From a virus: a stretch of 64,000 nucleotides of DNA. The notes beneath the pieces were generated by a model that ran no database searches, was not told the DNA's origin, and saw nothing but the letters and a program-made list of their open reading frames with translations. The stretch lies in the IMG/VR virus record IMGVR_UViG_3300037502_001442, positions 7,823-71,822 of that record, one strand, 5' to 3'. Numbering within the stretch: the first letter of the stretch is position 1; the number at the start of each line of letters is the position of its first letter. The position numbers were made by a program, and so were the translations under genes. Of this stretch, positions 18,807-64,000 are shown piece after piece.

Positions 18807-20384
18807 ATGGCTACTTTTGACTACACCAGCAGGGACTTTGTCTCTATCAGGCAAGACCTGATCAACCGCGCCTCTCGGCTAGTTCCTGAGTGGAATAGGA
18901 CCGACGACTCTGACTTTGCAAACGTCCTGGTTGACCTCTGGGCGTACATGGGGGACATTCTCCACTTCTACGTGGACAGAGCCGCCGCAGAGACTTTTCT
19001 ACCTACGGCTACCCAGCGTGAATCCGTGCTGGCAATCGCAAACCTTATGGATTACGTGCCCGCCTCTTCTCGCGGTGCAAAGGGAACCATCACGTTCAAC
19101 GTCAACAGTGTCCCCACTAACCAGACAACCTATACGATTCCTCAGTACACGGTTTTCATTGGCTTCGATGACGACGGAAACGAGTACAAGTACTACTCCA
19201 CGACTGCCGTAACCGCCGCCAGCGCTGGAAGCCAGCACTCCGTGACTGTGGTGCAAGGTGAACTGATCAATGAGGAGAGCCTGGGCCGTAGCAGTGGCAC
19301 TGCTAGTCAGAGAATCAACTTGACCAAAAAAGGTGTTGAGTCTACCAGCGTGTCCGTGTATGTCTACGAAGGGCCAGTGGATGCCTCTGGTAACGCAACT
19401 GCCGTTACTTACCAGTACGTCGAGCAGATTTCGTCCGCTGGGTATCAAGACAAGGTCTTTACTACCCGCCTTACCTCGGATGGCTACACCATCATTGAGT
19501 TTGGTAACGGGTTCAATGGTGCTATCCCCACCACAAACGCGGCTATCACTGCATCCTATCGTGCTACCTCGGGTGCTCTGGGCAACCTGTCGCAAAACAA
19601 AGTGACTCTTGTGGGTGGCACTCCCAACCAATACATCTCGGTTGTCTCTTCGTCCGCTATGTCTGGTGGCACGGACATCGAGTCCATTGTCTCGATCAAA
19701 GAGAATGTGTCGCGCTTGTACAGGACACAGGATCGAGCGGTGTCCCTGTCGGACTACAAAGACCTGACTCTGCAAACCCCTGGTGTGGGTAAGGCTACGG
19801 CCGTTTATCAGAGCAACACCAGCACTGGGGCGTCTGTTCTTGTCTACCCCGTCCCTACTCAATCGGCATATCCACCTGCGGCCGTGTCCAACCAAGTCCG
19901 ACTCACGGTGCCCACCTCCATTGTGGAATACACCGAGTCTTATCTGCGTGACAAGTCCATGGTGGGAGTAACCGCTTACGTTGCCAACAAAAGCAGTGCC
20001 TCCGCTGGGGTCACCGCCTACATCGAGTGCGTACCCGTGTATGTAGCGATGACTGTGAACGTACTACCCAACTTTGTGCAGGCTGTAGTCAAAGAAAACG
20101 TCACGGCCGCTATCAAAGAACTTCTGTCTTTTGACAACGTCTCGTTTGAAAAGAGGCTGAGTATTGGAGAGGTTTATCGGGCGGCACTCAGCGTTCAGGG
20201 TGTCGACTTCGTGGACATCACGCAGTTGAACACCAACAGGCTGTCGGCTACGGTTACAAACATTACCCCAGATGTATCGACAAACTACACGGCAACTAAA
20301 CTTCTCTGCTTTGCCGATGACGTGGACAGCACCATCGCCATTACCCTAACCATGGTTGGTGGCCTCACTGGCGTTCAGGTGTAA
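18807..20384 (+). CDS. Baseplate wedge subunit (gpJ/T4 gp6-like)
   Basis: 'DYTSRDF..IRQDL', 'AYMGDILHFY.DR...E.FL.TA.QRES', 'FGNG..G.IP', 'QDRAVSL.DY'. Confidence 0.9.
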   Translation: MATFDYTSRDFVSIRQDLINRASRLVPEWNRTDDSDFANVLVDLWAYMGDILHFYVDRAAAETFLPTATQRESVLAIANLMDYVPASSRGAKGTITFNVNSVPTNQTTYTIPQYTVFIGFDDDGNEYKYYSTTAVTAASAGSQHSVTVVQGELINEESLGRSSGTASQRINLTKKGVESTSVSVYVYEGPVDASGNATAVTYQYVEQISSAGYQDKVFTTRLTSDGYTIIEFGNGFNGAIPTTNAAITASYRATSGALGNLSQNKVTLVGGTPNQYISVVSSSAMSGGTDIESIVSIKENVSRLYRTQDRAVSLSDYKDLTLQTPGVGKATAVYQSNTSTGASVLVYPVPTQSAYPPAAVSNQVRLTVPTSIVEYTESYLRDKSMVGVTAYVANKSSASAGVTAYIECVPVYVAMTVNVLPNFVQAVVKENVTAAIKELLSFDNVSFEKRLSIGEVYRAALSVQGVDFVDITQLNTNRLSATVTNITPDVSTNYTATKLLCFADDVDSTIAITLTMVGGLTGVQV

Positions 20385-49910: not shown

Positions 49911-51035
49911 ATGACCAGTATCTTCTATGGCCTCGTTGCCATGTTCACCGCACTTAGTGCAACCCTTGCCTTTGGGATAAAGGCGCCAGAGCAATCAACG
50001 CTAGACACCGCAACAGGATCGGTAGCAACCGACGCACAGTTCCCCTCATGGGAGCCCACCGCAACCGAGGCTGAGTTTCTCGCCTACGCATCCCTGCCTG
50101 AGGCCCCTCCCATGGACTACTGGGTGAGATTGGCCCAGTGCGAGACAGGGCAGAACTGGCAGAACAGCGGTCGCCACGGCGGAGGTTTCGGGTTCTTCAC
50201 CGTTGGTGAGTTCCCCTCGTCCAGCATGGGCGGATGGGAGCGCATGGGCGGAGAGGAGTTTGCAGGCCACCCCATGGACGCCACCCCGACCGAGCAGATC
50301 ATCATCGCAACTCGTACCGCCATCCTTGGCTGGGGTCCGATCCCGCTCCAGCGCGACCCCGCCATGGCTAAGCGCAAGGGTATCCCCGTCGACTACGAGT
50401 GGAAGACCAATCCCCATGGCTATTGGACATGGGGCTGTGCCAAGAGGGTCGTCGGTGACCCCTGCGGGTACCTCTACGACGGCACCGTCATCAAGGACTT
50501 CCCGCATGAGAAGCCCGCTTACTGTCGCTATCTGAAGCCCAAGAACTACTCGAAGGTGGACGGCAACGGCAGGTACCTGCACAACCGCGCCATCCGAGAA
50601 GCGTCAGCGAAAGCCCGAGCAGACGGAGCAACCTCGGTTGCCTTCCCCTCTGCGGTGGAGTGGTTGTACCCGACCCCCGTGAGCAATGCGCCCATTCCCG
50701 ATACCGCACTCTGCCCCAAGGCATGGTCCTATGCACGAGAGGCAGGGTTCACCGACGAGGAAATCGCCGTGCTGGATGTCGTCATCAACAACTCGTCCAA
50801 GTGCTCTGCCTCTGCCAAGAAGAAGGACGCCGAGGGCATGATCTACCGAGGCTGGACTCTTCTCAGTTCTGACTGGGTTTCGTACTTCCGCATCTCGGCC
50901 ACGCTGTGGTCCGCACAGGAACTGCTCGACCCCGCAACACACATGGAAGCGGTGCGAGCCCTCTACGAGCGAGACATCCTCCGAGGTGGAGACGGGTGGG
51001 GCTGGGCCAGTCAGTACCTCCAGAACACTAACTAA
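49911..51035 (+). CDS. Secreted Rpf-like lytic transglycosylase with a second degenerate SLT-like domain
   Basis: N-terminal signal/TM segment; 'WVRLAQCETGQNW...GGGFGF...ATPTEQIIIA' Rpf pattern; C-terminal 'C.......AGF...VINNSSKC...ELLDP..H..A...LY......GW.W'. Confidence 0.7.
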   Translation: MTSIFYGLVAMFTALSATLAFGIKAPEQSTLDTATGSVATDAQFPSWEPTATEAEFLAYASLPEAPPMDYWVRLAQCETGQNWQNSGRHGGGFGFFTVGEFPSSSMGGWERMGGEEFAGHPMDATPTEQIIIATRTAILGWGPIPLQRDPAMAKRKGIPVDYEWKTNPHGYWTWGCAKRVVGDPCGYLYDGTVIKDFPHEKPAYCRYLKPKNYSKVDGNGRYLHNRAIREASAKARADGATSVAFPSAVEWLYPTPVSNAPIPDTALCPKAWSYAREAGFTDEEIAVLDVVINNSSKCSASAKKKDAEGMIYRGWTLLSSDWVSYFRISATLWSAQELLDPATHMEAVRALYERDILRGGDGWGWASQYLQNTN

Positions 51036-51053
51036 TGTTCTACAATGGAACCC

Positions 51054-51290
51054 ATGGATAACTCCGACTGCATCAAGCGAACCGACATTCTCGGCACCTC
51101 TGAGGTGGCTGAGGTGCTCGGCGTTAGCAAGCAACGGATCGCGTCGCTTCGCAAGGACGTGAACTTCCCCGAGCCCTTCCTGAAGTTGGCGTCCACACCA
51201 CTCTGGGACAGGACCGAGGTGGAGACCTTCCTTGCGAAGTGGCGCCCTTGGGTCCTCCTGAACCGCGACTCGGTATCGAGCGATGAGTGA
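51054..51290 (+). CDS. HTH DNA-binding protein (AlpA/excisionase-like)
   Basis: 'ILGTSEVAEVLGVSKQRI......FPEP...LASTPLW'; TACAAT at 51041 suggests a leaderless start at 51054. Confidence 0.8.
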   Translation: MDNSDCIKRTDILGTSEVAEVLGVSKQRIASLRKDVNFPEPFLKLASTPLWDRTEVETFLAKWRPWVLLNRDSVSSDE

Positions 51291-51426
51291 TCTGTACCGC
51301 TGTACGGCTTGCAAGCACTCGGTGAGGCTGGGGGTGACGCCTAGCGTCCCCCCGACCCACCACTGCTCTGGCAAGCACCACGAGATGGTCCTTGTCGGGG
51401 AAAAGAAAAAGGCCCCCGCCGAATAA
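51283..51426 (+). CDS. Small zinc-ribbon-like protein (MSDLYRCTACKH...)
   Basis: Translated by hand, 47 aa, CxxC...HC...H. Confidence 0.45.
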   Translation: MSDLYRCTACKHSVRLGVTPSVPPTHHCSGKHHEMVLVGEKKKAPAE

Positions 51427-51446
51427 TCGGCAGGGGCCAGTTTCTC
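51401..51446. terminator. Terminator between convergent operons
   Basis: Stem GGCCCCCGCCGA/TCGGCAGGGGCC; A tract on the left gives a U tract on the minus strand; T-rich on the right. Confidence 0.75.
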
Positions 51447-51450
51447 TTCG

Positions 51451-51846
51451 TTAGTCAACGTACTCGGGGATGTCCCGCTTGGTTCCTTTGCCTGTGTGGA
51501 AGTCAATGCCACCCCACACTCCATAGAGGAAGTTGTTCAACTTGGCGAACTTGAAGCACTCACTGCGGACAGTGCACTCGGCGCAGATCGCCTTAGCCTT
51601 GTCCACGAGGGGTTTGCGGGGCTGACCCCGACCGATGCCCTCTGCGAAGAAGTACTGCAACAGTTCGGGCTTGCCCAAGCACTTAGCCTCGCTCTTCCAC
51701 GACTCCCCGTCCGAGAACTTCAGAGAGGGAAGACCGACGACACCGCTGTGGGTCGTAACCTCATCCTCGGCAGAAGTGAGGGGGGACTCGTCGAGCCCCC
51801 CCTCTTCCTCCTCCTGCACGTCGCTCCAGTGCAGGTACTTCGTCAT
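51451..51846 (-). CDS. whiB: WhiB-family transcription factor (second copy)
   Basis: 'WKSEAKC', 'AKAICAECTVRSECF', 'YGVWGG'. Confidence 0.88.
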   Translation of the reverse strand: MTKYLHWSDVQEEEEGGLDESPLTSAEDEVTTHSGVVGLPSLKFSDGESWKSEAKCLGKPELLQYFFAEGIGRGQPRKPLVDKAKAICAECTVRSECFKFAKLNNFLYGVWGGIDFHTGKGTKRDIPEYVD

Positions 51847-52865
51847 GCGAACACCAGTTCCTTGATGAGCGAGAGGACCTGACGGTCGTACTGCTCAGCC
51901 TTGCCAGTGAGACCGTTGAGCATGTTTCGCTCGACACGGGTCTCATCCGAGCCAGCGAAGTGGTGCTGGTAGGTGTTCCACGTCTGAAGGACGCCGAGGG
52001 CGGTGCCGTTCCACGGAGCGACCCGAGGGTCGTTGTAGTAGAGGTGGCGGAGCAGTTCCTGCTTGTTCTCGGCACGAGCCTTGACCTGCGGTCGCACGTC
52101 CACGTCCTGTGCGACAGGGACGAGGCGCTCGATGATCGCTTGGAACTCGTTGTCCACCACAGCCTGCGTGGCAAGGCGCTCGAGTTCCAGCGACAGGTCG
52201 TCAGAGTAGGAGTGCACCAGCGTCAGGGCGTCCCGCACCGTCTGGAGACGGAAAGCGCTGTTCTTGGAGTGGCGGACCTTGTACTGCGGGGTGTTCTCAC
52301 CGAGGGCACCAGCCAGCGTGTTGTCGCAGACCACGACCGTCGAGACCAACTGGAAGGTGGTCGACAGGGTGCCGTCGTGCGAGGTGCAGGCAAGGAGGTG
52401 CGGGCGGATGCTGAACCCCGTGCCCGCGACGTCGACCGTCTCGGGCAGTTCGATGGTCACGAACGACTTCGCACCGTTCCGCAGGAGCCCCGCAGTACCG
52501 ATGGAGAGGTCGTCATCGTCCAGCAGGTTGGCAACGGAACCGAGGAGCCACTCACGGTACTGGTGCACCTGATAGCCCGACTTGAAGGTTGCGAAGATGT
52601 CGTTCGTGTCCCCACGGACGATTGCCTTGCGCTCGGTGTCCTCGATGAAGTTCTCACCGATCTTGATGTACACGGGAGCCTCGACGGCTTCCCAGTTGTA
52701 CAGGCGGCGGAGGACGTCGTCCACGGGGACGGCGTGCTTGTAGTGGTTGGGCTCGTCACCTTGCAGGTCGGCACGGTAGTGCCAAGCGTTTCCACGCCCG
52801 TACTGCGGGTCCGTGAACCCGATGAGCACCTGAGTGTTGAGCCATGAGAGTGTCTCTGCGGACAT
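51843..52865 (-). CDS. DUF932-family (phage/plasmid TIGR03299-like) protein
   Basis: True start MSAETLSWLN at 52865 after AGGAG; 'AGLLRNGA..F', 'TSHDGT', 'VVCDNTL', 'RHS'. Confidence 0.85.
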   Translation of the reverse strand: MSAETLSWLNTQVLIGFTDPQYGRGNAWHYRADLQGDEPNHYKHAVPVDDVLRRLYNWEAVEAPVYIKIGENFIEDTERKAIVRGDTNDIFATFKSGYQVHQYREWLLGSVANLLDDDDLSIGTAGLLRNGAKSFVTIELPETVDVAGTGFSIRPHLLACTSHDGTLSTTFQLVSTVVVCDNTLAGALGENTPQYKVRHSKNSAFRLQTVRDALTLVHSYSDDLSLELERLATQAVVDNEFQAIIERLVPVAQDVDVRPQVKARAENKQELLRHLYYNDPRVAPWNGTALGVLQTWNTYQHHFAGSDETRVERNMLNGLTGKAEQYDRQVLSLIKELVFA

Positions 52866-52922
52866 TGTTTGTCTTCTCCTTGTGTTTGTTGGTTTGTTTG
52901 TGGGTTGTCCCACACCTGCGAA

Positions 52923-52950
52923 TCTACAGGTGTGGATGTGGGGTTTGCAA
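52923..52950 (-). promoter_or_regulatory. Sigma70-type promoter embedded in two hairpins
   Basis: Minus strand TTGCAA-18 nt-TAGATT; both boxes lie at hairpin tips (GGGGTT/AACCCC and CCACACCTG/CAGGTGTGG). Confidence 0.55.
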
Positions 52951-52953
52951 CCC

Positions 52954-55157
52954 CTAAAAGAGGTTCCTGACTTCCAGCCAGACCAGAGCCAGAGCCTCGG
53001 GCTCGAAGACCTCACCGTACGCTTCCTCGGACAGGTCCTTGAAGGTCTTGAACAGTTTCTCGCTGTCTTCGTCGGGGCAGAGGTACTTGTTGGCACCCCC
53101 ATCGCCGTTCTGCTCAACGATGAAGAAGTTCTCCCCCCGAGAGACAGTGGCAGTGAACGCCACCCCTCGGTCGGTCTCCCATTCTTCGTCAATCTCGATC
53201 AACCACTCATCGTCGAAGAGCGAGGGGTTGGCAGGGGTCACAGGACCGTAGTAGTCCCTTAGTTCGTCAGTCATTTGTTTCTCCTTTGTACTTTGCTGAC
53301 AGGCTGAGACACCCGAACCCAAGGGAAGCGAGTGCCATGGTGACGGGAAGCGTTATGGGCGCCCCGTAGAACAGGATGTTGGTAAACACCCCGAGATAGA
53401 AGGACACGCCAAGGAGCGCCACCCCCGTAGGGGTGGTCACTCGGTTGGCGAACCTCTGAGGGTCAGAGACTCGCATCTTCGGTCTCCAGTGCACGCACGA
53501 GGAAGTCGAGAGACACCCCGACAACCCGAGCCTCACGGAGCGCACCTCGGCGGGTCCGCTTGGTCTTGGTCGCCGTGAGTACGGGATCGAACTGGTCCAC
53601 CGCCCAGATGACACCAGTGACGGTGTATCCCCCGAGTGGCAACCACTTGCGGTTCTTCTCGACGACGACGCTGATGTTGAGATCACTCATCGTCTTCTCC
53701 GTCCTCGTAGAATCCCATGTTGTAAAGGAAGTCCACGAAGGCATCCAGATGGAGACCCTCCACGACGTCCCACGACGAGACCTCGGTGCTTCCCTTGTAG
53801 GAAACGCCCTCGGGCAGTTGGATCAACTCCTCGGGGTTCTCCGTGGCGCAGTTCTCGATGGCTTTGAGAGCCGTTGAGAGCATCTTGTTGGGCACGGGCG
53901 GGTAGCAGTTGCTCACGAAGTGAATGCTGACCGCCTTTGCCAAGTCTTCGTCACCGAGGTAGTCGATGAGATCCAGTGCCTTTGAGTATCCCATTAGATG
54001 TCCTCCTGTTCGTCGTAGGGATAGATGGAGAACGAGTACAGGTTGTGCTCGCTCAGGTCTTCGTAGAAGCCGTCGGGGTCAGCCTTGGCGTACTCCTCAC
54101 ACTCCTCCAGCGTGCCCACGAAGGCGGGCGTCTCGCTATCTGGCAGGCACCCTGCGGATGCCCACCAGACTGCGAAGGTTCCTTCGATGGTCTTCATGAT
54201 GCGCTCACCGTCGTTTCCACGGGGAAGAGACCGAGGGCGACAGCCTTTGCCACCGCCTCACGAAGGACCTGAAGAGCCTTGTCGTGGGTGTACTCGTCCA
54301 CTGGGATCGTCAGAGCGAAGTTGAACCTGCTCAGGACCGTCTGGTTGTGGCAGGAGTAGCAGACTCCGTCCTCACCGATGCGCTCCAGAGGTCCCTCGCA
54401 GTGCGGGCACCAGAGTGTGTAGTTGTTGATTGTCATGAGTTGCTTCTCCATTCGCTGTAGTTGTCTCTGTTGTTGTCGTCCTCGGGGTCGAGCCCGAGTT
54501 CCGCACACCATTCGGCGTACGTGGGTCGTGTGCTGAACACGACCAGTCTGTGCTTCTTCTCTTTCATGTGTTTCCTTTCTTAGTAGGAGTCGGGGTTGCT
54601 TCGGAGCCACTCCTCGTAGCCGTCCCACGGGTCGTCTATCGACTCGGCTACGTGATTGACGTAGTCGCTGTAATCCTTGGACGACTTGTAGTCCTCCTCG
54701 GTCTTGTCGGGATTGTCCTCCAGCCACTCGTCGAGGCACTGGGCGTACTCGCCAGCGAGGAACTTCTCCTCTGCTCGCTCCCACCGTTCCTCTGCCTCGT
54801 ACTGGTCCTGATAGGGCTTCTCCAGCCATGCGTCGTAGTTGATTCTCATGTTCTTTCCTTTCACTTGTAGATGTTCTTGGGTTCACTGCTGATGACGCGC
54901 CAGCCACGCCCGAGGTTCGACCCCTTGCTTGCCACAAACCACTCGTCTCGGTGCAGTTCAATGACCTGCACGTCGTCCATGTTGAGTCCGTCGAAGATGG
55001 GGTTGCCCCTCTCGTACTGGTCGAAGACGCTGTTGGCATTGGCGAACAGTTCGTCCTCCGTGTCACCGAGTACGACGATGGCAGGCTCCTCGATGTCGAG
55101 GTCAGGCCAGATGATGCGAACGATCACCCCGACCTTCTCCTTGTGCACGACGTCCAT
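52954..55157 (-). other. Nine small acidic or hypothetical early-type CDSs (52954-53274, 53267-53476, 53463-53690, 53683-53994, 53994-54197, 54194-54436, 54433-54567, 54580-54849, 54861-55157)
   Basis: Coupled minus-strand ORFs with AGGA/GGAG RBSs; starts refined by hand; 53267-53476 is hydrophobic; 54194-54436 has CxxC...CxxC. Confidence 0.65.
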
Positions 55158-55750
55158 CACTTGTCTCCTTCCGTGTGCTCTTTCCAGAGTTCGTCTGCGG
55201 TCTGGTTCAGGAGGTCCCAGACCTCGTTGTACTGGTTGTCCCAAGCGTCGATGTCATCGGGGTCATCGACATCGGGGATGTCGTTGTCGAGGTCCACGTC
55301 CGCCAGCACCTCGCCGTTGGCGATGAGCGTCACGCCGAGAACGGCGTTGCTCAGTTCCTCGTACGAGATGAGGAACGAGAGGTCGCTCCACTCTCGGGAG
55401 ATGGTGATGAAGGCTTGGAGGGGCGGTCCCCACGGACTGCTGAAACTGAAGTCCACCTCCAGAGTCACAGTGTCGTCACGGTCCTGCTCCAGCACGAAGT
55501 CGTCCTTGAGGTACGTGTCGCTGTCACCCCACTTGGTTCCCCAGTTGGCGTACTGCCAGTCGACGACGTGCACGCCTTCGGCGTTGCGGTTGTCGTCGTT
55601 GTTGAACTCTTCGGGGATAGTTACGAGAGTCGAGATGATCTGAAACTCTCGGGACTCGCCCTCTCCCTTGACGGTCACGGCGTCGACGAAACGACTCACG
55701 GACTCAGAGGGACCACGGACGGTCAGGTTGTTGGTGCACCAGTTGGGCAT
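55157..55750 (-). CDS. DUF1281/YubB (Api92-like ferredoxin-fold) protein
   Basis: 'MPNWCTNNLTVRG', 'DWQYANWGTKW', 'F.SPWGPP', 'YEE'. Confidence 0.8.
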   Translation of the reverse strand: MPNWCTNNLTVRGPSESVSRFVDAVTVKGEGESREFQIISTLVTIPEEFNNDDNRNAEGVHVVDWQYANWGTKWGDSDTYLKDDFVLEQDRDDTVTLEVDFSFSSPWGPPLQAFITISREWSDLSFLISYEELSNAVLGVTLIANGEVLADVDLDNDIPDVDDPDDIDAWDNQYNEVWDLLNQTADELWKEHTEGDK

Positions 55751-55781
55751 TGGATTCTCCTTGTGTTGTGTTGGTTGCTGT

Positions 55782-55876
55782 TGGACTTGCGTCCCATGAG
55801 TGCTGGAGCGGGGAGAAAGGGTAAGAACCCGCCCCAGCACCCATGGCACGCCACGGGCTCTCACCCGTGACGTCCA
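55782..55876 (-). ncRNA. Structured intergenic element, divergent copy
   Basis: Same three-stem layout as the copies at 58.4-62.1 kb but different sequence; GAGA tetraloop and G-U pairs on the minus strand. Confidence 0.5.
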
Positions 55877-55884
55877 TGGTCACT

Positions 55885-57423
55885 CTATCCGACCCAGTCG
55901 GAAAGAAGCGACGCAATTATGGACCCCGCCTCAATACCGAGGTCCTCTGCCTTGCCGTCCAGCACCGCCGTGAGGGCGGTCTGCTTCGCATTGAGGAGTG
56001 CGAACAGCCTGTCGTCAATCGTCTGCTCACCGTTGGCACGGGCACCAGTGAGGTGCCAGCACGTCACGGACTCGGTCTGACCGACACGGTGGATGCGGTC
56101 CTCTGCCTGAGAGAGTTCGGCAGGAGTCCACGGCAGTTCCACACCGAGCCACTGAGTGGCACGAGTGAGGGTCAGACCGACACCGCCAGCGGTGTAGTTG
56201 CAGACGATGACGTTGATGCGCCCCTGCTGGAAGGCGTCGACCGCCTCCTGCTTCTCGGCATCCTTCATGCCACCGACGATGCGACCGACCGACCAGCGGG
56301 GATCGGTCTCTGCACGCTTCTGGCACTCGGTGACGATGGCGTCAATGACCGCACGGTGGTGGGCGAAGACCACGACGGGCTCGTCCGCCTCCACGAGGCT
56401 CTCCAGATGCTCCAGAGCGCTGGGCACCTTAGCCACGGCGAGGGTCCGACGGAGGGCTGTCAACTGGGTGATGACCTCCGCACGGGAGACCTTGAGCACC
56501 GCCTCACGACCGCCACGTTCGTACACCCATCCGAGGAAGTCGCTCTCCACCCGCAGGTACTCCCGCAGGCTCTTGTCATCGAGGGCGACAGCCACCTGAG
56601 CACGACGCTTAGCGGGGAGTTCCTTGAGGACCTCGCTCTTGCGACGTCGGATGTAGCACGTGCCAGTCAACTTGAGGTTGAGTTCCTCGGTGTTGGATGC
56701 GCCGTTGAACGTCCACCCGAAGTTGTTCTGGATGGGGTCGCAGTAGCGGAACCTGAACGCTCCAGCCGAGCCGAACACGGGGCGCAACTGACCGATGGCG
56801 TCCAGCAGGGACACGAGTTCAGAGGGGCGGTTCGTTGCGGGCGTGCCCGAGGCGAGCACCACGTAGCCGTGCTCGGGGACCGAGCGGGCAATCGCCTGCA
56901 ATCCGATGGTGCGCTTCGCCTTCGGGTTCTTGATGCGGTGCGCCTCGTCCACCAGCAGGGCACCGAAGCCCTCGGTAGCGAGAGCCTGCGTCCAGCCCGT
57001 GACCGACGAGTCACCGATCACCGTGACGTCGGCGCCCGAGAGGGCGTAGGGCTTCGTGCCGTTGACGACCTCCACGGACAGTGCGCCCGCAGTGAACTTG
57101 GCAATCTCACGGCGCCAGTTCTCACGAAGAGACGGGGGCACGACGATGAGCGAGCGCAGACCTTGCTCGTGAGCCTTGACGGCGACGGCGATGAGTTGCG
57201 GGGTCTTGCCCAGACCCATCTCGTCACCGAGGATGACACGGCGCACCTTGAGGGCATACGCCACGCCAGCCCGCTGGTACGGGAGGAGGGGAAGGGCAAG
57301 GTCGAAGTCGATGTCGGCATCGTGCGCCCCAGAGAGCGCAGTCAGTTCGGCATCCACCTCAGTAGGAGGGGCGACCCTGCTGAGGGATGACAGCAGGGCG
57401 TCCAGCGATTCACGCTGATTCAT
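55885..57423 (-). CDS. SNF2/HARP-like helicase
   Basis: 'LLPYQRAGV', 'GDEMGLGKT', 'VDEAHRIKN', 'SGTPATNRPSEL', 'GVGLTLT', 'QAEDRIHRVGQ'. Confidence 0.92.
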   Translation of the reverse strand: MNQRESLDALLSSLSRVAPPTEVDAELTALSGAHDADIDFDLALPLLPYQRAGVAYALKVRRVILGDEMGLGKTPQLIAVAVKAHEQGLRSLIVVPPSLRENWRREIAKFTAGALSVEVVNGTKPYALSGADVTVIGDSSVTGWTQALATEGFGALLVDEAHRIKNPKAKRTIGLQAIARSVPEHGYVVLASGTPATNRPSELVSLLDAIGQLRPVFGSAGAFRFRYCDPIQNNFGWTFNGASNTEELNLKLTGTCYIRRRKSEVLKELPAKRRAQVAVALDDKSLREYLRVESDFLGWVYERGGREAVLKVSRAEVITQLTALRRTLAVAKVPSALEHLESLVEADEPVVVFAHHRAVIDAIVTECQKRAETDPRWSVGRIVGGMKDAEKQEAVDAFQQGRINVIVCNYTAGGVGLTLTRATQWLGVELPWTPAELSQAEDRIHRVGQTESVTCWHLTGARANGEQTIDDRLFALLNAKQTALTAVLDGKAEDLGIEAGSIIASLLSDWVG

Positions 57424-57507
57424 GATTGGGTTCCTTTCTTGTGGTTGCTCGGTTGAGCCTAGCGGATGGGAGGGTCAATCGGCGCACCGAAAGACCCCCC
57501 CAACTGC

Positions 57508-58179
57508 TCAGCCCTGTCGGGCGCACTCGGGTCCGAGACCCCGAGCACGTGATGCCTCGTCCGTGAGGTGGCGACCGCACGAACCGCACACCCCGAGTTC
57601 CCGACCGAAGAGCGCCTTGGCATCGTGGCGCTCGGCGTCGGTGAGAGCACCGAGGCGCTCTGCGACGTCCCGCACTTGCGCGAACGGGATCGGTTGGTCG
57701 GCGTGACCGCCGATGACACGGAGGACCTCCTTGCGACCGTGTGACACACGGACACGGAAGAAGTCCAAGTCGTTGTTCCCCGTCGCAGACGGGAGGGCGT
57801 AGCGACCCTCCTCCACGTTGGCGAGGACCTCGTCGGTGTTGAGGCACTCCCCCTTGCGGTGGAAGTTCTTCCATCCCTCTGAGGTGTGCACGGCGAAGCC
57901 CGTACCGATGGGGACGGGATGACCGCACGACCCGCACCAGTTCTGACGCTTGTTCACAATGACGTGACCCTCGGGGAGGTGGGCGTGCTCGGGGTTGCGG
58001 GGCTTCGGGATGCTCTTCACCTTGTCAATGACCTTGGAGATGTCAGCGACGGTGAGTCGTGCCACGGCGGTGTCCGCCATGTACTGCTCCACGTCGGTGA
58101 TGCCGAGGGTCTCGGCACGCTCCTCCAGAAGTGATCGCAGGAAGTGCACCTGCTTCGGGGTTGCGACAGTGGCGCTCAC
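57508..58179 (-). CDS. DUF6011-like zinc-binding protein
   Basis: C-terminal 'CGSCGRHLTDEASRARGLGPECA'; N-terminal 'ATPKQVHFLRSLL'. Confidence 0.75.
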   Translation of the reverse strand: MSATVATPKQVHFLRSLLEERAETLGITDVEQYMADTAVARLTVADISKVIDKVKSIPKPRNPEHAHLPEGHVIVNKRQNWCGSCGHPVPIGTGFAVHTSEGWKNFHRKGECLNTDEVLANVEEGRYALPSATGNNDLDFFRVRVSHGRKEVLRVIGGHADQPIPFAQVRDVAERLGALTDAERHDAKALFGRELGVCGSCGRHLTDEASRARGLGPECARQG

Positions 58180-58424
58180 AGCGTCACCGTCCTGTGCTCC
58201 CGCACCTTGATGAGCGGGAAGAGGGTGCTGACGTGGGCGACGACCTCCTCCACGGTCTCCACACCGAGCGTGGAGGTCTTGAAGTAGAGGGTCAGGTCGT
58301 TCAGCCCCCGCTCTTCGCCGTCACTGGTCTTGGCTCGGATGCTGACGGCGACGAAGTCCGTGTAGACGTTCGCCTCGGTCTCGACGTCCTCGACGTCGTG
58401 GATGCTGATGGATGCGTAGAGCAT
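58176..58424 (-). CDS. Hypothetical protein (MLYASISIHD...)
   Basis: GAAAGGAA RBS before ATG 58424. Confidence 0.65.
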   Translation of the reverse strand: MLYASISIHDVEDVETEANVYTDFVAVSIRAKTSDGEERGLNDLTLYFKTSTLGVETVEEVVAHVSTLFPLIKVREHRTVTL

Positions 58425-58450
58425 GCTTGTTCCTTTCTGTTGGTTGCTGT

Positions 58451-58536
58451 TCGGGCTCTGATGAGCCCTCACAATGCACGAGCCTAGCGCCCATGCACTG
58501 TGAGGGCACCACCACTTACGTGGTGGAGCCCCGAGG
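58451..58536 (-). repeat. Structured intergenic repeat, copy B
   Basis: + strand TCGGGCTC-TGATGA-GCCCTCAC...GTGAGGGC-A-CCACCAC-TTAC-GTGGTGG-AGCCCCGAGG. Confidence 0.85.
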
Positions 58537-59097
58537 TCACGAGAGGCTCTCGTGGAGCGCCTCGTAGTCGTCGCTGAGGTACGTGATGAAGTCGTCCCTG
58601 TCACGGTCCTTCACGAGGACCGAGACCCCCGTGGAGAAGACGTTGCTGGTGGGCTCCACGAGGACCGCCACCGTGAACGGGCAGTCGCTCGTGCCACCGA
58701 TGAGTTCCTCCACCCACTGGTTGAAGTCACGCTTGCGACGACCGACGGCGTCGTCCCAGTTGCCCGTGGTCCAGCCGTCCAGCACCTCGGTCCAGCCGTT
58801 CAGGGTCGTGTGCTGGTAACCCCTCCAGCCGTCCGTGGAGCGCCACTCACGTGATGCGATCAACTCTGCGTACTCTCCCCAGAGAGGGTCGCCGTACTCG
58901 TTGAAGCGCACGTAGTCACCGATGATGAACTTCTTCGCACCTTCGGGCGAGACGATGAAGAGCGTGGACGCCGAGTTGACGTCCTGTTCGTAGCACGACT
59001 CACAGATGTAGTCGTTCACCACGTCGGACCACTGACCCTCGGTGTCGGGATCGAACTGGCTCTCACAGTCGTGGCAGGTGTTGGTTTCGTTGCTCAT
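58537..59097 (-). CDS. Hypothetical protein with N-terminal zinc finger
   Basis: 'CHDC...CESC', 'STDGWRGY'; GAAAGGAA RBS. Confidence 0.75.
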   Translation of the reverse strand: MSNETNTCHDCESQFDPDTEGQWSDVVNDYICESCYEQDVNSASTLFIVSPEGAKKFIIGDYVRFNEYGDPLWGEYAELIASREWRSTDGWRGYQHTTLNGWTEVLDGWTTGNWDDAVGRRKRDFNQWVEELIGGTSDCPFTVAVLVEPTSNVFSTGVSVLVKDRDRDDFITYLSDDYEALHESLS

Positions 59098-59109
59098 GGT
59101 TGATTCCTT

Positions 59110-59201
59110 TCTGTCTCGGGCTCTTGTGAGCCCTCACAGCCTCTCAGACGGCGCCTGAGGGGCTGTGAGGGCACCACCGCAGAGCGGTGGAGCCCCGAGG
59201 G
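59110..59201 (-). repeat. Structured intergenic repeat, copy C (92 bp, identical to copy E)
   Basis: Base-by-base match to 60777-60868. Confidence 0.92.
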
Positions 59202-59207
59202 AATGGG

Positions 59208-59510
59208 TCAGTAGAAGTGCCCGAAGACCTCCCAGCGACCGTCGTCGGTGGGTCGGATGATGCCGTCCCTCCTGCTCGTGATGTATGCGTTGAACCCGCA
59301 GAGTTCCAGCCACTTGAAGATGGTCTCGGCACTCTCGTTCTTCACCGTCGGGTCCACGGCGATGAGTATGGCAAGAGCCGTCCGTGCCTTGCCGTCATCC
59401 AGCGTGCACCGAACGGCGTGCGTCTCCTCGTGGATGATGTGCCAGTCGGCGCTGTTGCTCAGGTACAGGTCGTCTCGCACCGCACGTGCGATGTCGTCTC
59501 TGATGGTCAT
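59208..59510 (-). CDS. Hypothetical protein
   Basis: GAAAGGAAA RBS; single gene between copies D and C. Confidence 0.7.
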   Translation of the reverse strand: MTIRDDIARAVRDDLYLSNSADWHIIHEETHAVRCTLDDGKARTALAILIAVDPTVKNESAETIFKWLELCGFNAYITSRRDGIIRPTDDGRWEVFGHFY

Positions 59511-59527
59511 GGGTTTCCTTTCTCTGT

Positions 59528-59614
59528 CTCGGGCTCGTGTGAGCCCTCAGGGGGCACCAGCGTAATGCCGATGCACCCTGAGGGCACCACCGCAGAGCGG
59601 TGGAGCCCCGAGGG
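59528..59614 (-). repeat. Structured intergenic repeat, copy D
   Basis: Conserved ends; long stem changed compensatorily to GCCCTCAGGG.../...CCCTGAGGGC. Confidence 0.88.
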
Positions 59615-60067
59615 TCATGTCCAGTCGGCGCTGAGACCGACTCGTGCGTAGAGGGCGTGCAGGAGAGCCCCGTGCTCCACCGAAACGATCCGCCGTGCGA
59701 ATCGCACGTACTCGGTGCGCCACGCCTCGCCGTGTCCACGCTCACCGCAGGTGAGGTGGGCGAGTTCGTGGGCGAGCACGAGGCTCGTCGTCGGTCCCGA
59801 GAGCACGATGCGGTAGCCGTTCAGGTCGGCGCACGCTCCCGCTCTCTTGATGCGGGCTCGCACGACCTCGGGCGTGTCCAGACCGAGGCTGAGGCACGCA
59901 TCGGTCACGAGCCTCTGTGCGTCCTCCACGGACCACCGACGGGAGGGCAGGACGTCGTCCACCACGCTCTCCACGCCGTAGGTCAGCCTCTGGTGCTCGG
60001 GCATGCCCGAGAAGGCACGAGACCTCGCCCGTGCCCTCTCGGTCAGTTCCACGATGTGCATGGTCAC
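59615..60067 (-). CDS. HEXXH metallohydrolase (Rv0185/TIGR04338, SprT-like)
   Basis: 'VLAHELAHL......HGEAW...Y'; coupled to the DUF2786-like gene. Confidence 0.75.
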   Translation of the reverse strand: MTMHIVELTERARARSRAFSGMPEHQRLTYGVESVVDDVLPSRRWSVEDAQRLVTDACLSLGLDTPEVVRARIKRAGACADLNGYRIVLSGPTTSLVLAHELAHLTCGERGHGEAWRTEYVRFARRIVSVEHGALLHALYARVGLSADWT

Positions 60068-60762
60068 CTCCCGATGGCGCCGATGGCGCCCCGACCGATG
60101 CCGTTGCTGTTGAACGTGGAGCCCGTGCCGAGCCCTGCGCCGTAGGCAGACGCCGAGCGGACGCCACGGGACTGCACCGCTCGGAGCCCCGAGACCTGCG
60201 CCCTCATCTCGTCGTCCGCCCGCTTGAGGCGGTCACGGAGCACGAGCGCCGAGCCCGTGGTCTCCGTGGCGACCTCGTTGGACGCCTTCGTGAGAGCCCG
60301 ACCGACGCCGACGGCGAAGCCGACCCACCACGAGGTGCGGAAGGAGCGGTCGCCCTGAGGGATCGAACGGAGCGCCAGTGCCTCGGCGCTCTGGAAGAGC
60401 ACCTGAGTGGCGAAGATGTCAGCCTTCGTGCCGTAGAGGTGGAGTCGGTATCCCTTGCCACCCTTCTCGTTCCACACCGAGGTGCGGTACCGAGCGACGC
60501 CGTTCGCCTTCGCAATCTCGCCTGCGACGGTCAGACGGCGCAGTGCGTACGACCCGAACACGTCCAGCGTGTCGGTGACGACCTCCTCGTCTCGGTGCTC
60601 AGCACGGGCGAGGGCTCCCTCGTCCAGTGAGTACTTCGTGATGAGGCGCTGAGCGAGCGCCAGAGCGGTCTCAGCCTCGGCGGGCGGAGTGTTCGGATGG
60701 TTGGCACGGTCCAAGATGGCACGCACCTTCTCCACGATGGAGTCCTGTGTCTGTGTGGTCAT
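60064..60762 (-). CDS. DUF2786-domain protein (Rv0184-like)
   Basis: 'EKVRAILDRA....TPPAEAETALALAQRLITKYSLDE', 'SFRTSW..GF', 'AYGAG...G'; start MTTQTQ at 60762. Confidence 0.8.
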   Translation of the reverse strand: MTTQTQDSIVEKVRAILDRANHPNTPPAEAETALALAQRLITKYSLDEGALARAEHRDEEVVTDTLDVFGSYALRRLTVAGEIAKANGVARYRTSVWNEKGGKGYRLHLYGTKADIFATQVLFQSAEALALRSIPQGDRSFRTSWWVGFAVGVGRALTKASNEVATETTGSALVLRDRLKRADDEMRAQVSGLRAVQSRGVRSASAYGAGLGTGSTFNSNGIGRGAIGAIGR

Positions 60763-60776
60763 TGTTGGTTCCTTTC

Positions 60777-60868
60777 TCTGTCTCGGGCTCTTGTGAGCCC
60801 TCACAGCCTCTCAGACGGCGCCTGAGGGGCTGTGAGGGCACCACCGCAGAGCGGTGGAGCCCCGAGGG
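60777..60868 (-). repeat. Structured intergenic repeat, copy E
   Basis: Identical to 59110-59201. Confidence 0.92.
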
Positions 60869-61369
60869 TCATGCGTTGTCGCCCCGCAGGAGGGCGAGGA
60901 TGGCGTCCGCCGAATCGGGAGGGAGGACGAGCGACACGTACACGCCACCGTCCCGCTCCCGATTGACCTGCCCGAGCAGTCCTCGGGCGACGAGAGCCTC
61001 ACGCAGTTCGTTGCGCCGACGGTCGGTGACGATGTCGTTCAGGTGGGCGACAGCCTGCTCACGCTCACGGCGCTTGCGGGCTTCATCGAAGCGCTCCTGC
61101 GCCTCACGAGCCTCCTGCTCTTGCTTGCGGGCGAAGGCTGACAAGCCCTCCGCATAGACGCCCTTCACCTGACCGAGGGTCAGGAGGCGACGCTCACGGT
61201 GCACAGCCTTCCCTTCGCGGTTCCAGTAGACCTCCACGACCTTGACCTTCGTGCCCTTGCGGGTGTGCTCTAGCCCGAGGACCTGCACGTAGGCGCAGGT
61301 GTACTTGCTCGTGCGGAAGACCATCTCGGGCTGGTCCCCGACGATGTCCAGAATCTCGGATTGCTTCAT
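60869..61369 (-). CDS. Hypothetical protein
   Basis: GAAAGGAACC RBS; single gene between copies F and E. Confidence 0.75.
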   Translation of the reverse strand: MKQSEILDIVGDQPEMVFRTSKYTCAYVQVLGLEHTRKGTKVKVVEVYWNREGKAVHRERRLLTLGQVKGVYAEGLSAFARKQEQEAREAQERFDEARKRREREQAVAHLNDIVTDRRRNELREALVARGLLGQVNRERDGGVYVSLVLPPDSADAILALLRGDNA

Positions 61370-61386
61370 GGTTGGTTCCTTTCTGT

Positions 61387-61469
61387 CTCGGGCTCTGATG
61401 AGCCCTCACAGTGCACCGACGGCGCCGATGCACTGTGAGGACCCCCCCACCGAGGCGGGGGAGTCCCGA
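61387..61469 (-). repeat. Structured intergenic repeat, copy F
   Basis: CTCGGGCTC-TGATGA-GCCCTCACAGTGCA...TGCACTGTGAGG; short stem replaced by CCCCCAC-CGAG-GCGGGGG. Confidence 0.85.
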
Positions 61470-61484
61470 AGGGATGGGAAGAAG

Positions 61485-61991
61485 TCAGAAGGGGACTCGG
61501 TCGTCGGGCACCGTGACGAGAACGAGGTCCCCGTTGAGGATGCTCGTCAGGGTCTGGATGACCTTCTCGTGGGCAGTGTCGTCGCCCTCGCTGAACAGGT
61601 TCACCGCAAGCGCTCTGAGCGCCTCGGTGACGATGTCGTCGGGGGTCTTGCTGGCCCACTTGCGGGCGTGGCAGGGGTCGCACAGGGCGCCCCAGTCCTC
61701 GTCGGTGCCGAGGTTGGTGAGGCACTTGGCGCAGAAGCCCCGCAGGCAGTTCTCCGAGCGGTCTGCGTAGGTCTCGCCCCACGAGTCCTGCTCGCACTCG
61801 GGGCACTGGCAGTCCAGCGGGGTCTGCTCCACGATGATGTCCTCGGTGAGTCCTGCGAAGGACACCGAGTCCAGAATCTCGCCCGTGGCGGTGTCCGCCC
61901 AGACCTGCACGTAGAAGGGCTCGGTGTACCAGCCGTTCTCACGGGCAATCTGCGCCCAGCGGTCACGTGCGCTTTCGATGTTCAGTTCCAT
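61485..61991 (-). CDS. Cys-rich hypothetical protein, first gene of the early-type array
   Basis: Several CxxC motifs; GAAAGGAACC RBS; ends in 'DDRVPF'. Confidence 0.75.
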   Translation of the reverse strand: MELNIESARDRWAQIARENGWYTEPFYVQVWADTATGEILDSVSFAGLTEDIIVEQTPLDCQCPECEQDSWGETYADRSENCLRGFCAKCLTNLGTDEDWGALCDPCHARKWASKTPDDIVTEALRALAVNLFSEGDDTAHEKVIQTLTSILNGDLVLVTVPDDRVPF

Positions 61992-62017
61992 GGTATGGGT
62001 TCCTTTCTCTGGATGGA

Positions 62018-62102
62018 TGGGCTGGTGAGCCCTCTCAGACCCTCGGACGTGCGCCCGAGAGTCTCAGAGGGCACCCTCTCCCCGAAGGGAGAGGAGCGCC
62101 AT
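62018..62102 (-). repeat. Structured intergenic repeat, copy G
   Basis: ATGGGCT...AGCGCCAT closing stem; GCCCTCT...AGAGGGC long stem; CCTCTCCC-CGAA-GGGAGAGG (cUUCGg loop on the minus strand). Confidence 0.75.
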
Positions 62103-62389
62103 GCTGTTGGGGGAGGTATGTGTCCCCGAAGCCCGAGTTGCTGTTCGGACATGCTTGCTTTCACGTAGTGCAGAGGTGTGCTCCCTCTTCATCCCTTCCT
62201 TTACTGGTCCCCCACGTACTTGCTGTGCTCGGGGGCTTGCGCCCCCCGCCTGTCGTTGCGTGGATTCGGGTCAACCGTACCGATGGGCCTCACGGGACCC
62301 GATTATCGGAGCGCCAGCGGTATGGGGCTGGCAGGAGGCAGTGTAGGGGAAGGGTGTGCAGAAGTGGTGGATGATTCTTGTGATTCTCC

Positions 62390-62964
62390 TGTGACGTGCG
62401 TCACACCCCCTGTGACGGGGGTCATGGGTCTGGGGCTCCATAAGGGGGGTCCCGAGGTGCCCATAAGGGGCGCCCGAAACGGCGCCAGACCGACAGACCT
62501 TCCCATCTATGGGAGGGAAGGAAGGGGGGGATCGGGTGATCGGCGGAGCAGAGGGGATCAGCGGAGCATGGTGATCAACTTGCTTGTGCATGGCAATGAT
62601 TACTGGTTGGTGGGCACAACATTACTGGTTGGTGGGCACAACTATGTGTGTCCCCCTACCCTCCCCGTGCACACGTGTGACCTGCGTCACCCATAGCCCC
62701 ATCCCTAGGACGCATACCCCTAGGGGTATACCTCACATACCCTAGGGGGTATACGAATCCCTAGCACATGCCCCCATGATGCAACCGACTCGATCACTCA
62801 ATGAATAGGCGATTTGCGTCAGGAAGCGTTCTAAGGCGCTAAAAATCCTTGGTTGACTCGGTATACCAGAGAGGGGGGTTACACGCTGTAGAAGGGCTCT
62901 CAGAGCGTCTGAGAGGGTCCTAGGGGGCGCCCCGAGCGCCATGGGAGGTGTGACGTGCGTCACA
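62390..62964. promoter_or_regulatory. Three TGTGA-N6-TCACA (CRP/GlxR-like) palindromes
   Basis: TGTGACGTGCGTCACA at 62390-62405 and 62949-62964; TGTGACCTGCGTCACC at 62676-62691. Confidence 0.6.
62599..62642. repeat. Perfect 22-bp tandem duplication
   Basis: ATTACTGGTTGGTGGGCACAAC twice. Confidence 0.9.
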
Positions 62965-63001
62965 GGGGGGACGAGGGGGGGTGCCATACCCCTAGGGGTA
63001 C
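62714..63001. repeat. Three ATACCCCTAGGGGTAT-type palindromes
   Basis: 62714-62729 (perfect), 62737-62752, 62986-63001. Confidence 0.8.
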
Positions 63002-63154
63002 CCCCCCACCCTTAAAGGGGTCCGAGGGGCGGGGGAGGGGGTAGGGCCGATTCCCCGACAACCCTAAAAATGGCCCGATAGCCCTATTCTGGAGTCGATT
63101 TGACCTCAAAAATGCGCATAGATAGCCCTATCCCCAGTGTGCGATAATGAAAAC

Positions 63155-63469
63155 GTGCGAAAGCGGCTCACTGCGAGGGACATCGTCCACAACTTCACCC
63201 CTGGTGACTACTCGGGAGACCCTCAAGATCAGGAAATGCTGAGTGATTTTTGGGTAAATCGCTACCAGCAGTCCAAATGGAGCCCAATGGTCACTGGAAG
63301 TGACGAAAGAGACTCAATTTACGAGAGCATTGAGAAGGAAGGTCAGAAAAAGCCTGTCAGCCTGAACCTTGAGACAAAGGAAATCCTTGACGGGCATCAC
63401 CGAATCGCGGCCATGTACCACATAAACCCAGACCAGTTCGTAAAATACCGTGCCTGGAAGCCTCGTTAA
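63155..63469 (+). CDS. ParB/Srx-like nuclease-domain protein
   Basis: 'ESIEKEGQKKPV.......ILDGHHRIAA'; start uncertain (63137 or GTG 63155). Confidence 0.7.
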   Translation: MRKRLTARDIVHNFTPGDYSGDPQDQEMLSDFWVNRYQQSKWSPMVTGSDERDSIYESIEKEGQKKPVSLNLETKEILDGHHRIAAMYHINPDQFVKYRAWKPR

Positions 63470-63516
63470 GGGTTAAATCGTTCCCCCTAACAGGCGCTGA
63501 AGGGTACAATTGATCG

Positions 63517-63963
63517 ATGTCATTGAGCAAGGCACAGTTTGGCGAGTGGCAAGAGGGGTTCGACCCCCAAAAGGACATCAAAGTTCCTAAGGGAAGGTTC
63601 CATGGCTCATCTGGCCTTGCTGAGGACTTCGGTCTAGAGCACCTAGACCCTATGGAGCATCGAGATATCGTTGGTGACGCAGTCTACGCGGTCTCTGGAT
63701 GGGGAGAAGACGTCGACATGCCGATCTCCAATCTGGCGGCACAGCACCATATAGACCGAGCAAACGCCAGGAAAGTCTTCGAGAGCATCAAATCACGTGG
63801 GTTCGACCGTGATGAGCCGATCACAGTCGTTGGAGACAAGGACTACGGAGTCATCATCAACGGTCACCACAGAGCCATCGCCGCCAGAGCCGCTGGTATG
63901 AAGGAAATTCCCGCGACTTTGGTCAGTTGGGATGATGTGTATCGACGCATCCAGGGCAAGTAA
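63517..63963 (+). CDS. ParB/Srx-like nuclease-domain protein
   Basis: 'ESIKSRGFD..EPITV.......IINGHHRAIAARAAGMKEIPA'. Confidence 0.8.
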   Translation: MSLSKAQFGEWQEGFDPQKDIKVPKGRFHGSSGLAEDFGLEHLDPMEHRDIVGDAVYAVSGWGEDVDMPISNLAAQHHIDRANARKVFESIKSRGFDRDEPITVVGDKDYGVIINGHHRAIAARAAGMKEIPATLVSWDDVYRRIQGK

Positions 63964-63979
63964 CGTACAATTGATCGAT

Positions 63980-64000
63980 ATGACACTGTCTCGTGACCAG
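63980..64000 (+). CDS. 5' end of a truncated ORF (MTLSRDQ...)
   Basis: Same 15-bp upstream motif as 63517; runs off the window. Confidence 0.5.

Follow-up and report, generated by a model that had tools for sequence, protein, structure and literature searches.

We analyzed a 64,000-nt window (the whole stretch of DNA examined here) covering bases 7823–71822 of the 71,822-base IMG/VR virus record IMGVR_UViG_3300037502_001442, with a G+C content of 57%. The host of this virus is probably an actinobacterium. From ~62.1 kb down to 51.4 kb, the minus strand carries every gene, and the operon is closed by a canonical intrinsic terminator at 51411–51438 (minus strand) with a 12-bp GC-rich stem followed by TTTTTCTTTT. 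This layout suggests a single long minus-strand message running from ~62.1 kb to the terminator at 51.4 kb, and position and content suggest that the operon is early. An initial annotation had noticed seven RNA-like elements in the gaps between these genes, described as covarying three-way junctions of no recognized family. These elements, here lettered A to G with G at the head of the array, are the subject of our study. Genes beside them are small, and five of the nine from G to the gene after A lack a Pfam family; the remaining ones carry DUF2786, a weak SprT-like match, DUF6011 and DUF1281_C, while a DUF932 domain occurs in the gene following a further spacer, I. Domains of this kind (window 51843–60762) typically occur in accessory regions of prophages and where conjugative elements have their leading region.

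All seven elements were present on the minus strand at the annotated coordinates, with B–G closely related and A divergent. Each can be drawn as a closing stem (P1) enclosing a short hairpin (P2) and a long hairpin (P3). A repeat finder clustered B–F, with C and E 100% identical over 92 nt (59110–59201 and 60777–60868) and D 77% identical to this pair. We built a covariance model from B–G, entering C and E as two alignment rows because their flanks differ, and scanned the whole window with filters off. The model recovered B–G at 66–123 bits. At the array head, with no gene upstream, G (62018–62102; 65.9 bits) has an outer stem AUGG-c-GCU/AGC-CCAU, an 8-bp P2 with a UUCG loop and a P3 of ~20 bp. 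Further down the operon follow F (61387–61470; 109.1 bits), with a CUCG loop in P2 and a 19-bp P3, E (60782–60866; 116.9 bits), D (59528–59612; 107.7 bits), C (59115–59199; 122.8 bits) and B (58451–58535; 98.7 bits), the last with a GUAA loop in P2. D is a mosaic in which the 5' part equals C/E and the distal P3 is of the B/F type. The same layout recurs in A (55782–55876; hit spanning 55762–55880, 20.5 bits, E = 0.004), composed of a closing stem, a short hairpin with a GAGA loop and a 23-bp long hairpin; its 3' flank ACAGCAACCAACA, common to A and B, ties this divergent copy to the family.

Two further minus-strand spacers resemble the elements. A marginal model match (hit 57421–57547; 13.1 bits, E = 0.3) marks a decayed copy, H (57424–57507), which lies ahead of the SNF2 helicase gene and consists of one long hairpin, then GCUC-AACC-GAGC and then GAAAGGAA. 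H appears to be B minus the stretch between two GGCUC words. Spacer I (52866–52955) is analogous in layout but has no sequence relationship to the family and was not matched by the B–G covariance model; here, a hairpin with a GCAA loop begins on the stop codon and is followed by a 10-bp hairpin with a TAGATT loop, a 30-nt CA-rich leader and AAGGAG. The remaining model matches either mirrored P3 on the opposite strand or were noise with E values of 0.3 and worse, with nothing credible in 1–55000, and the same model found no element in the 7.8 kb of the record beyond the window.

Six of the seven copies lie on the coding strand between a stop codon and the next Shine–Dalgarno site, G being the array head. 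The first paired base follows the upstream stop codon by 1 nt in B, 2 nt in D and E, 8 nt in C and A and 14 nt in F, as expected from the annotated starts near stop codons, and the folded body ends 17–31 nt ahead of the next ATG. The strong Shine–Dalgarno sites described earlier were also found: GAAAGGAA in six of six copies B–G, in the case of G within the leader at 61992–62017, and AAGGAG in A. The AAGGA core ends 5–9 nt ahead of the ATG, and the site is unpaired in all computed folds. Junction words are kept in B–F, namely GU after P2, UCA after P3 and GAGCCCGAGACAG ahead of the Shine–Dalgarno site, and B is trailed by a CA-rich leader of 26 nt. The idea of one element per early cassette proved to be loose: the spacers do precede genes, but two of them sit ahead of two-gene blocks, and eight tightly packed genes of the same operon, from ~55.1 to 53.0 kb, are devoid of any element.

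The ~85-base bodies comprise several helices with folding energies of −59 to −65 kcal/mol. Folding z scores of A–G ranged from −6.3 to −8.9 (G, −6.36; F, −7.44; E, −6.56; D, −6.33; B, −8.86; A, −7.98), and for each element none of 200 dinucleotide shuffles was as stable; values for H (−4.35) and I (−4.07) were about −4. The mRNA strand was the more stable one in seven of eight distinct elements, by 2 to 15 kcal/mol. As annotated, the P2 loops read GUAA in B, UUCG in G, GAGA in A, CUCG in F and UCU in C, D and E. Counting stem pairs over the eight distinct elements gave 227 Watson–Crick pairs, 18 G.U pairs, two A.C mismatches, which the opposite strand would read as G.U, and eight other 1×1 mismatches. 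The earlier claim that stem mismatches turn into G.U pairs on the mRNA strand was borne out by this ratio of 18 G.U to two A.C (one-sided binomial probability 2e-4, some G.U pairs being common by descent), but C/E has one C.A mismatch favoring the opposite strand.

Sequence variation in P2 and P3 preserves pairing, in agreement with the annotation: across B–G, 96.4% of 197 cells were paired and 13 of 33 pairs had changed on both sides. None of 500 shuffles reached this level of pairing and covariation, and sliding the partner by 1–3 columns left 29–45% paired. In comparisons among B, F and D, whose P3 stems are clearly homologous, we counted two to four double changes, one to five pair-keeping single changes and zero to one non-pairs each time. 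Related contigs ~97–99% identical to the region were available from four DNA runs of four studies, and all four carried, among the differences listed, the same five substitutions in G. On the mRNA, these amount to one G-C to A-U swap, one A-U to G.U, one G.U to G-C and one loop change, with a shift in fold energy from −61.0 to −61.6 kcal/mol. Because the substitutions in the relatives keep the fold, selection at the RNA level gains independent support. Among 24 runs examined for the stretch, no RNA run containing it was listed, a result that carries no information on expression. Part of the covariation signal may be shared descent. Overall, we consider it very probable that selection maintains the elements as a cis-acting RNA structure, whatever its role.

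The relatives also bear on a rival explanation, in which the elements are mainly DNA-level recombination modules whose flanks mediate exchange, duplication or loss of small cassettes and whose hairpins are incidental. Identity between C and E covers exactly the element, between unrelated genes, and D combines parts of two types. According to the contig alignment tables, alignments of relatives stop at 59097, the ATG after C, with unlike sequence beyond. In record 1 of relative X10, 543 unaligned letters separate an element copy from this ATG, and the gene at 59208–59510, between D and C, is uncovered in relatives X3 and X9 and has a depth of 0.5 in X10. One replaced cassette, as read from the contig tables, is bounded by an element and the ATG at 59097. 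Together with the C/E identity and the mosaic D, it points to the elements as likely sites of exchange. A precedent exists in the promoter early stem-loops (PeSLs) of T4-type phages, which combine a strong sigma-70-like early promoter with a terminator stem-loop in the available text of PMC2839356 and PMC4122927. Like the elements studied here, PeSLs are short conserved stem-loop motifs that are repeated between small non-essential genes; PeSLs mark cassette differences of close relatives, and our elements may do so as well. In our elements, in contrast, no such promoter was found, a U-tract is lacking, and the repeated unit consists of structure plus ribosome-binding site. Homology alone needs no pairing, yet the stems compensate and show the G.U bias of 18 to 2 on the mRNA strand, the only strand with the RNA-stabilizing UUCG and GNRA loops; contig breaks at repeats can equally be an assembly artefact. 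We therefore judge recombination to be unlikely as the main role of the elements, and it would complement an RNA-level function without replacing it.

Judged from the contigs, there is cassette and intragenic mosaicism among these 97–99% identical relatives (59098–59510 and 61129–61343). The intragenic case was seen in relative X2, where part of the gene after F is replaced, with 213 letters skipped and 237 put in (61129–61343). We also observed that public short-read contigs of relatives break at elements (59585–59614, 60800–60839 and 59097–59201). Assemblies of this lineage are therefore likely to be fragmented or mis-joined there.

The annotated three-way junction is one good fold of the elements, but a closing stem with three hairpins equals it in energy and covariation fit, and RNAalifold favored three tandem hairpins over the junction. 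The tandem fold competes because four boxes, numbered here from the 5' end, can pair in two ways: GGGGCUC (5' end), GCCCUC and GAGGGCUC (both at the P3 base) and GAGCCC (3' end). Pairing of box 1 with 4 and of 2 with 3 yields the three-way junction, in which P3 has 18–23 bp. Pairing of 1 with 2 and of 3 with 4 instead extends the 5' hairpin, shortens the middle one and creates a small 3' hairpin, all enclosed by the two to three outermost pairs. The energy gap between the folds is 0.1 to 1.8 kcal/mol in all five distinct B–G copies; for F, with −62.2 kcal/mol for the three-way and −64.0 kcal/mol for the tandem fold, the minimum-energy structure consists of three tandem hairpins. Fit to the covariation was equal, with 96.4% paired and 13 of 33 double-change pairs for the three-way fold compared to 96.5% and 14 of 34 for the tandem fold. 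Two compensatory changes in the outermost pairs of G are common to both folds, and only with the extended 5' hairpin does a G-to-A plus C-to-U double change in F count as compensatory. We therefore take P2, the distal part of P3 and the outermost closing pairs as supported, with the junction being one of two equal options. In A, no second fold of this sort exists.

Two nearly isoenergetic pairings, both of which survive the sequence changes in F and G, might constitute a switch whose states interconvert in response to ribosomes terminating nearby, to temperature or to some factor, thereby setting how strongly the following gene is expressed. P1 has its 5' strand 1–2 nt past the stop codon in B, D and E, so that a terminating ribosome must open this stem. 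This gap widens to 8–14 nt in C, A and F, however, and A lacks the second fold. No conserved unpaired core is present for ligand binding, making a riboswitch reading weak, and the Shine–Dalgarno site and start codon are unpaired in both states, which leaves no visible switch output. We regard such a switch as very unlikely.

Base composition of the spacers brings in a composite model, in which the hairpins would terminate or attenuate transcription, with polymerase halting or pausing although no U-tract is present, and a −10 hexamer located in the P3 loop would restart it, giving transcripts with GGGCUC/GAGCCC at their 5' end. Of the eight TA dinucleotides found across the 1,016 nt of spacers, six belong to TANNNT hexamers, which was unexpected; the ~9.7 kb of coding sequence contains eight. 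Five of the hexamers, all on the minus strand, lie in the P3 loops of B (TAGGCT, 58486) and D (TACGCT, 59564), in the long-stem loops of A (TACCCT, 55823) and I (TAGATT, 52926) and beside the hairpin of H (TAGGCT, 57461); the sixth, TACCAT, lies at the ATG of G. With C/E counted once and TACCAT left out, bare TANNNT is found in five of nine distinct spacers. C/E, F and G contain no TA, the hexamers of B and H are common by descent, and the hexamer of A is destroyed in four of four related runs (55822 T>G). A promoter scan detected no sigma-70-type promoter on the minus strand in 51000–64000. U-less terminators have reportedly been described in the early region of actinophage phiC31. Hairpin clusters are proposed as terminators for Actinobacteria in the available part of PMC8355165, a proposal disputed in that of PMC3993855, where purified mycobacterial RNA polymerase requires a U-tract and fails to stop at such sites. 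Similar to these proposed terminators, our elements form a GC-rich cluster at most 15 nt from the stop codon and lack a U-tract, but differ in having a strong ribosome site and the next gene within 17–31 nt. As the annotation had stated, none of the copies is followed by a U-tract, GAGACAGAAAGG being the sequence that comes next, whereas the operon's own terminator has one, indicating that phage and host use ordinary terminators. A terminator scan found none at the elements, the only strong minus-strand hit being 51411–51438. The terminator reading is weak, and we hold the composite model to be quite unlikely.

The lack of a known RNA family was also confirmed, as Rfam gave no match in the window at gathering thresholds. 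At E values up to 5, only miRNA-type hairpins appeared (19–26 bits compared to thresholds of 55–105), with no riboswitch family and no ribozyme family such as hammerhead, twister, pistol, hatchet or HDV-like. ARAGORN detected no tRNA or tRNA-like genes in 51000–64000. A tRNA-like RNase P substrate was rejected on this result, together with a closing stem of just 3 bp and the lack of a general CCA, and a CRISPR-repeat decoy was dismissed since P2 sequences differ among copies.

Branched fold, size and intergenic position would suit a ribozyme, and a new self-cleaving one was among the functions initially proposed. In addition to the missing Rfam ribozyme match, the unpaired junction letters are few and variable (UCACAA, UCAUCA, UCACAC or UCACC; GU or GG; a bulged G, A or C) and are absent from A. 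This reading is weak, and we find it scarcely credible. The conserved words GU, UCA and GAGCCCGAGACAG in B–F might instead be recognized by an RNA-binding factor of the phage or host, acting in nut- or put-like antitermination or as a translational repressor or activator. Processive antitermination does not, however, need seven copies in 6 kb, the words are explained by the two alternative pairings, and A has none of them. Moreover, Pfam domains of the flanked genes reveal no candidate binding protein. We consider a factor site highly improbable. Among the proposed functions, a processing site fits best and a translation enhancer or insulator is compatible with processing; ribozyme and antiterminator are unsupported because no unpaired core is common to A and B–G.

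Our preferred interpretation, held tentatively and at somewhat under an even chance, is that the elements are intercistronic punctuation of a polycistronic mRNA. According to the available text of PMC1540722, bacterial RNase III substrates owe their reactivity primarily to about two turns of helix, and some of this length can come from coaxial stacking. P3, with its 18–23 bp or about two turns and possibly stacked on P1, would be cut by an endoribonuclease specific for double strands, with host RNase III as the most likely candidate; at minimum, it would act as a barrier to exonucleases. After cutting, the upstream half would refold into a 12–13-bp hairpin at the new 3' end, formed by P2 extended by GGGGC/GCCCU, and the downstream half into a small GGGCUC/GAGCCC hairpin at the new 5' end. 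Each gene would thereby receive a capped message whose leader, rich in purines or in CA, is unstructured and whose strong Shine–Dalgarno site is free, and the flanks common to all copies could serve as homology patches for cassette exchange. When we split the copies in silico inside P3 at two arbitrary depths, the upstream half formed the 3'-terminal extended 12–13-bp hairpin in six of six copies, and all six downstream halves formed GGGCUC/GAGCCC near the 5' end with the Shine–Dalgarno site unpaired. With the deeper cut, additional CUGU/ACAG pairing extended the latter hairpin in four copies (B, C, E and F). Refolding of both halves would supply a reason for keeping both pairings. In this account, structure, strand, covariation, the two pairings, position and the free ribosome site are observations, whereas cutting, the enzyme and the capping role belong to the model.

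Several points weigh against this interpretation. Refolding of the halves would largely follow from the four boxes and is better viewed as a consistency check than as an independent test. The central helix of the tandem fold has just 14–15 bp, short for RNase III, and co-transcriptional folding should favor this local fold. Covariation was scored on five distinct paralogues from one genome, related by descent and gene conversion, in an alignment fitted to the structure model. C/E is more stable on the other strand by 0.8 kcal/mol and contains the C.A mismatch that favors it. In addition, eight downstream genes of the same operon do without an element, and the TANNNT hexamers, four of which occupy loops (B, D, A and I) while another flanks H, hint at a second function not explained by the model. 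A more elaborate version would have the elements as programmed two-state devices, with both pairings kept by selection, the long helix cut and the halves snapping into 3'- and 5'-terminal caps, and with some copies perhaps adding an internal promoter whose transcripts start with the 5' cap. We view this version as rather unlikely.

Among characterized systems, the RNase III signals of the T7 early region (R0.3, R0.5, R1, R1.1 and R1.3), at which internal loops are typical, appear closest. By analogy, our elements may work most like these signals. Shared features are repeated, related hairpins between the genes of a polycistronic phage transcript, a helix about two turns long (R1.1 and the length rule in the accessible text of PMC1540722), the missing U-tract and a ribosome site just downstream. 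Unlike the T7 signals, however, the elements branch into three helices, have an isoenergetic alternative and near-perfect stems without internal loops and probably function in an actinobacterial host; the likeness is one of layout, with no sequence relation recognized, although T7 sequences were not compared. Repetitive extragenic palindromic sequences (REPs) are single hairpins of 35–40 nt that occur across the host chromosome, are mobilized by transposases and can block 3' exonucleases to stabilize upstream mRNA. The elements resemble them as repeated intercistronic palindromes but differ in that no copy was found in 56 candidate bacterial-genome loci. Cluster K mycobacteriophages contain start-associated sequences (SAS), a 13-nt consensus located 3–8 nt before starts, and an extended form (ESAS) with arms following a conserved 17-bp consensus, as given in the available text of PMC3203893. 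These actinophage repeats likewise have a fixed position just upstream of starts and one orientation, with the extended form being an inverted repeat with a variable spacer. In contrast to ESAS, the arms of our elements vary and covary. Membership in SAS was rejected: the 13-nt consensus had three matches with two mismatches compared to 1.7 expected, none before a start codon. A keyword search of open-access text returned no description of such an actinophage element beyond SAS and ESAS.

Phage early and accessory operons pack many small genes, and division, stabilization and translation of their messages have been detailed for few model phages. With seven variants and compensatory mutants supplied by nature and two folds in competition, the element is a compact example that brings its own controls. 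One could ask with it whether 'cut and refold' punctuation exists beyond T7-like phages, in actinobacterial hosts, and whether such spacers double as exchange points for gene cassettes of an anti-defense type. An insulating spacer combined with a strong ribosome site may also help in building operons for high-GC bacteria.

To look for copies elsewhere, we searched with exact words, looser patterns and the covariance model. The exact conserved word occurs five times in the phage's own genome and at only two other loci in IMG/VR, both coding by eye and taken as chance. A looser gapped pattern retrieved 26 viral and 56 bacterial or archaeal loci, none of which scored better than E = 0.08 with the model. 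The model also gave no match in 80 viral loci around SNF2 relatives. For the SNF2 helicase itself, no relative exceeded 36% identity in viral and metagenome collections, with about 35% among GenBank phages; the protein of the first gene had no relative in IMG/VR, and megablast against GenBank phages gave no match. No copy was hence found outside the lineage in the collections searched, from which near-identical records may be missing, so that these blanks do not show the lineage to be alone. The elements constitute a new sequence family; the kind of signal is known, but its branched, two-state form is unusual.

In 80 metagenome loci, the model produced one marginal match (21.7 bits) at 18912–19014 of L102, a distant SNF2-bearing metagenome contig. 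We rejected it as a family copy, since it combines an unrelated hairpin with a ribosome site, P1 is broken and no repeat family is present. The single-copy spacer at this locus (18912–19030, plus strand) is nevertheless of like design, with a 10-bp GC hairpin, CUCACAA, a CCCC-AUA-GGGG hairpin, a CA-rich leader and GAAAGGAAC. Within the window, additional stable-loop hairpins occur in the non-coding stretch upstream of G (62103–62400, minus strand), including a G-rich stem capped by GCAA near 62230 and, near 62125, a CUUCGG motif.

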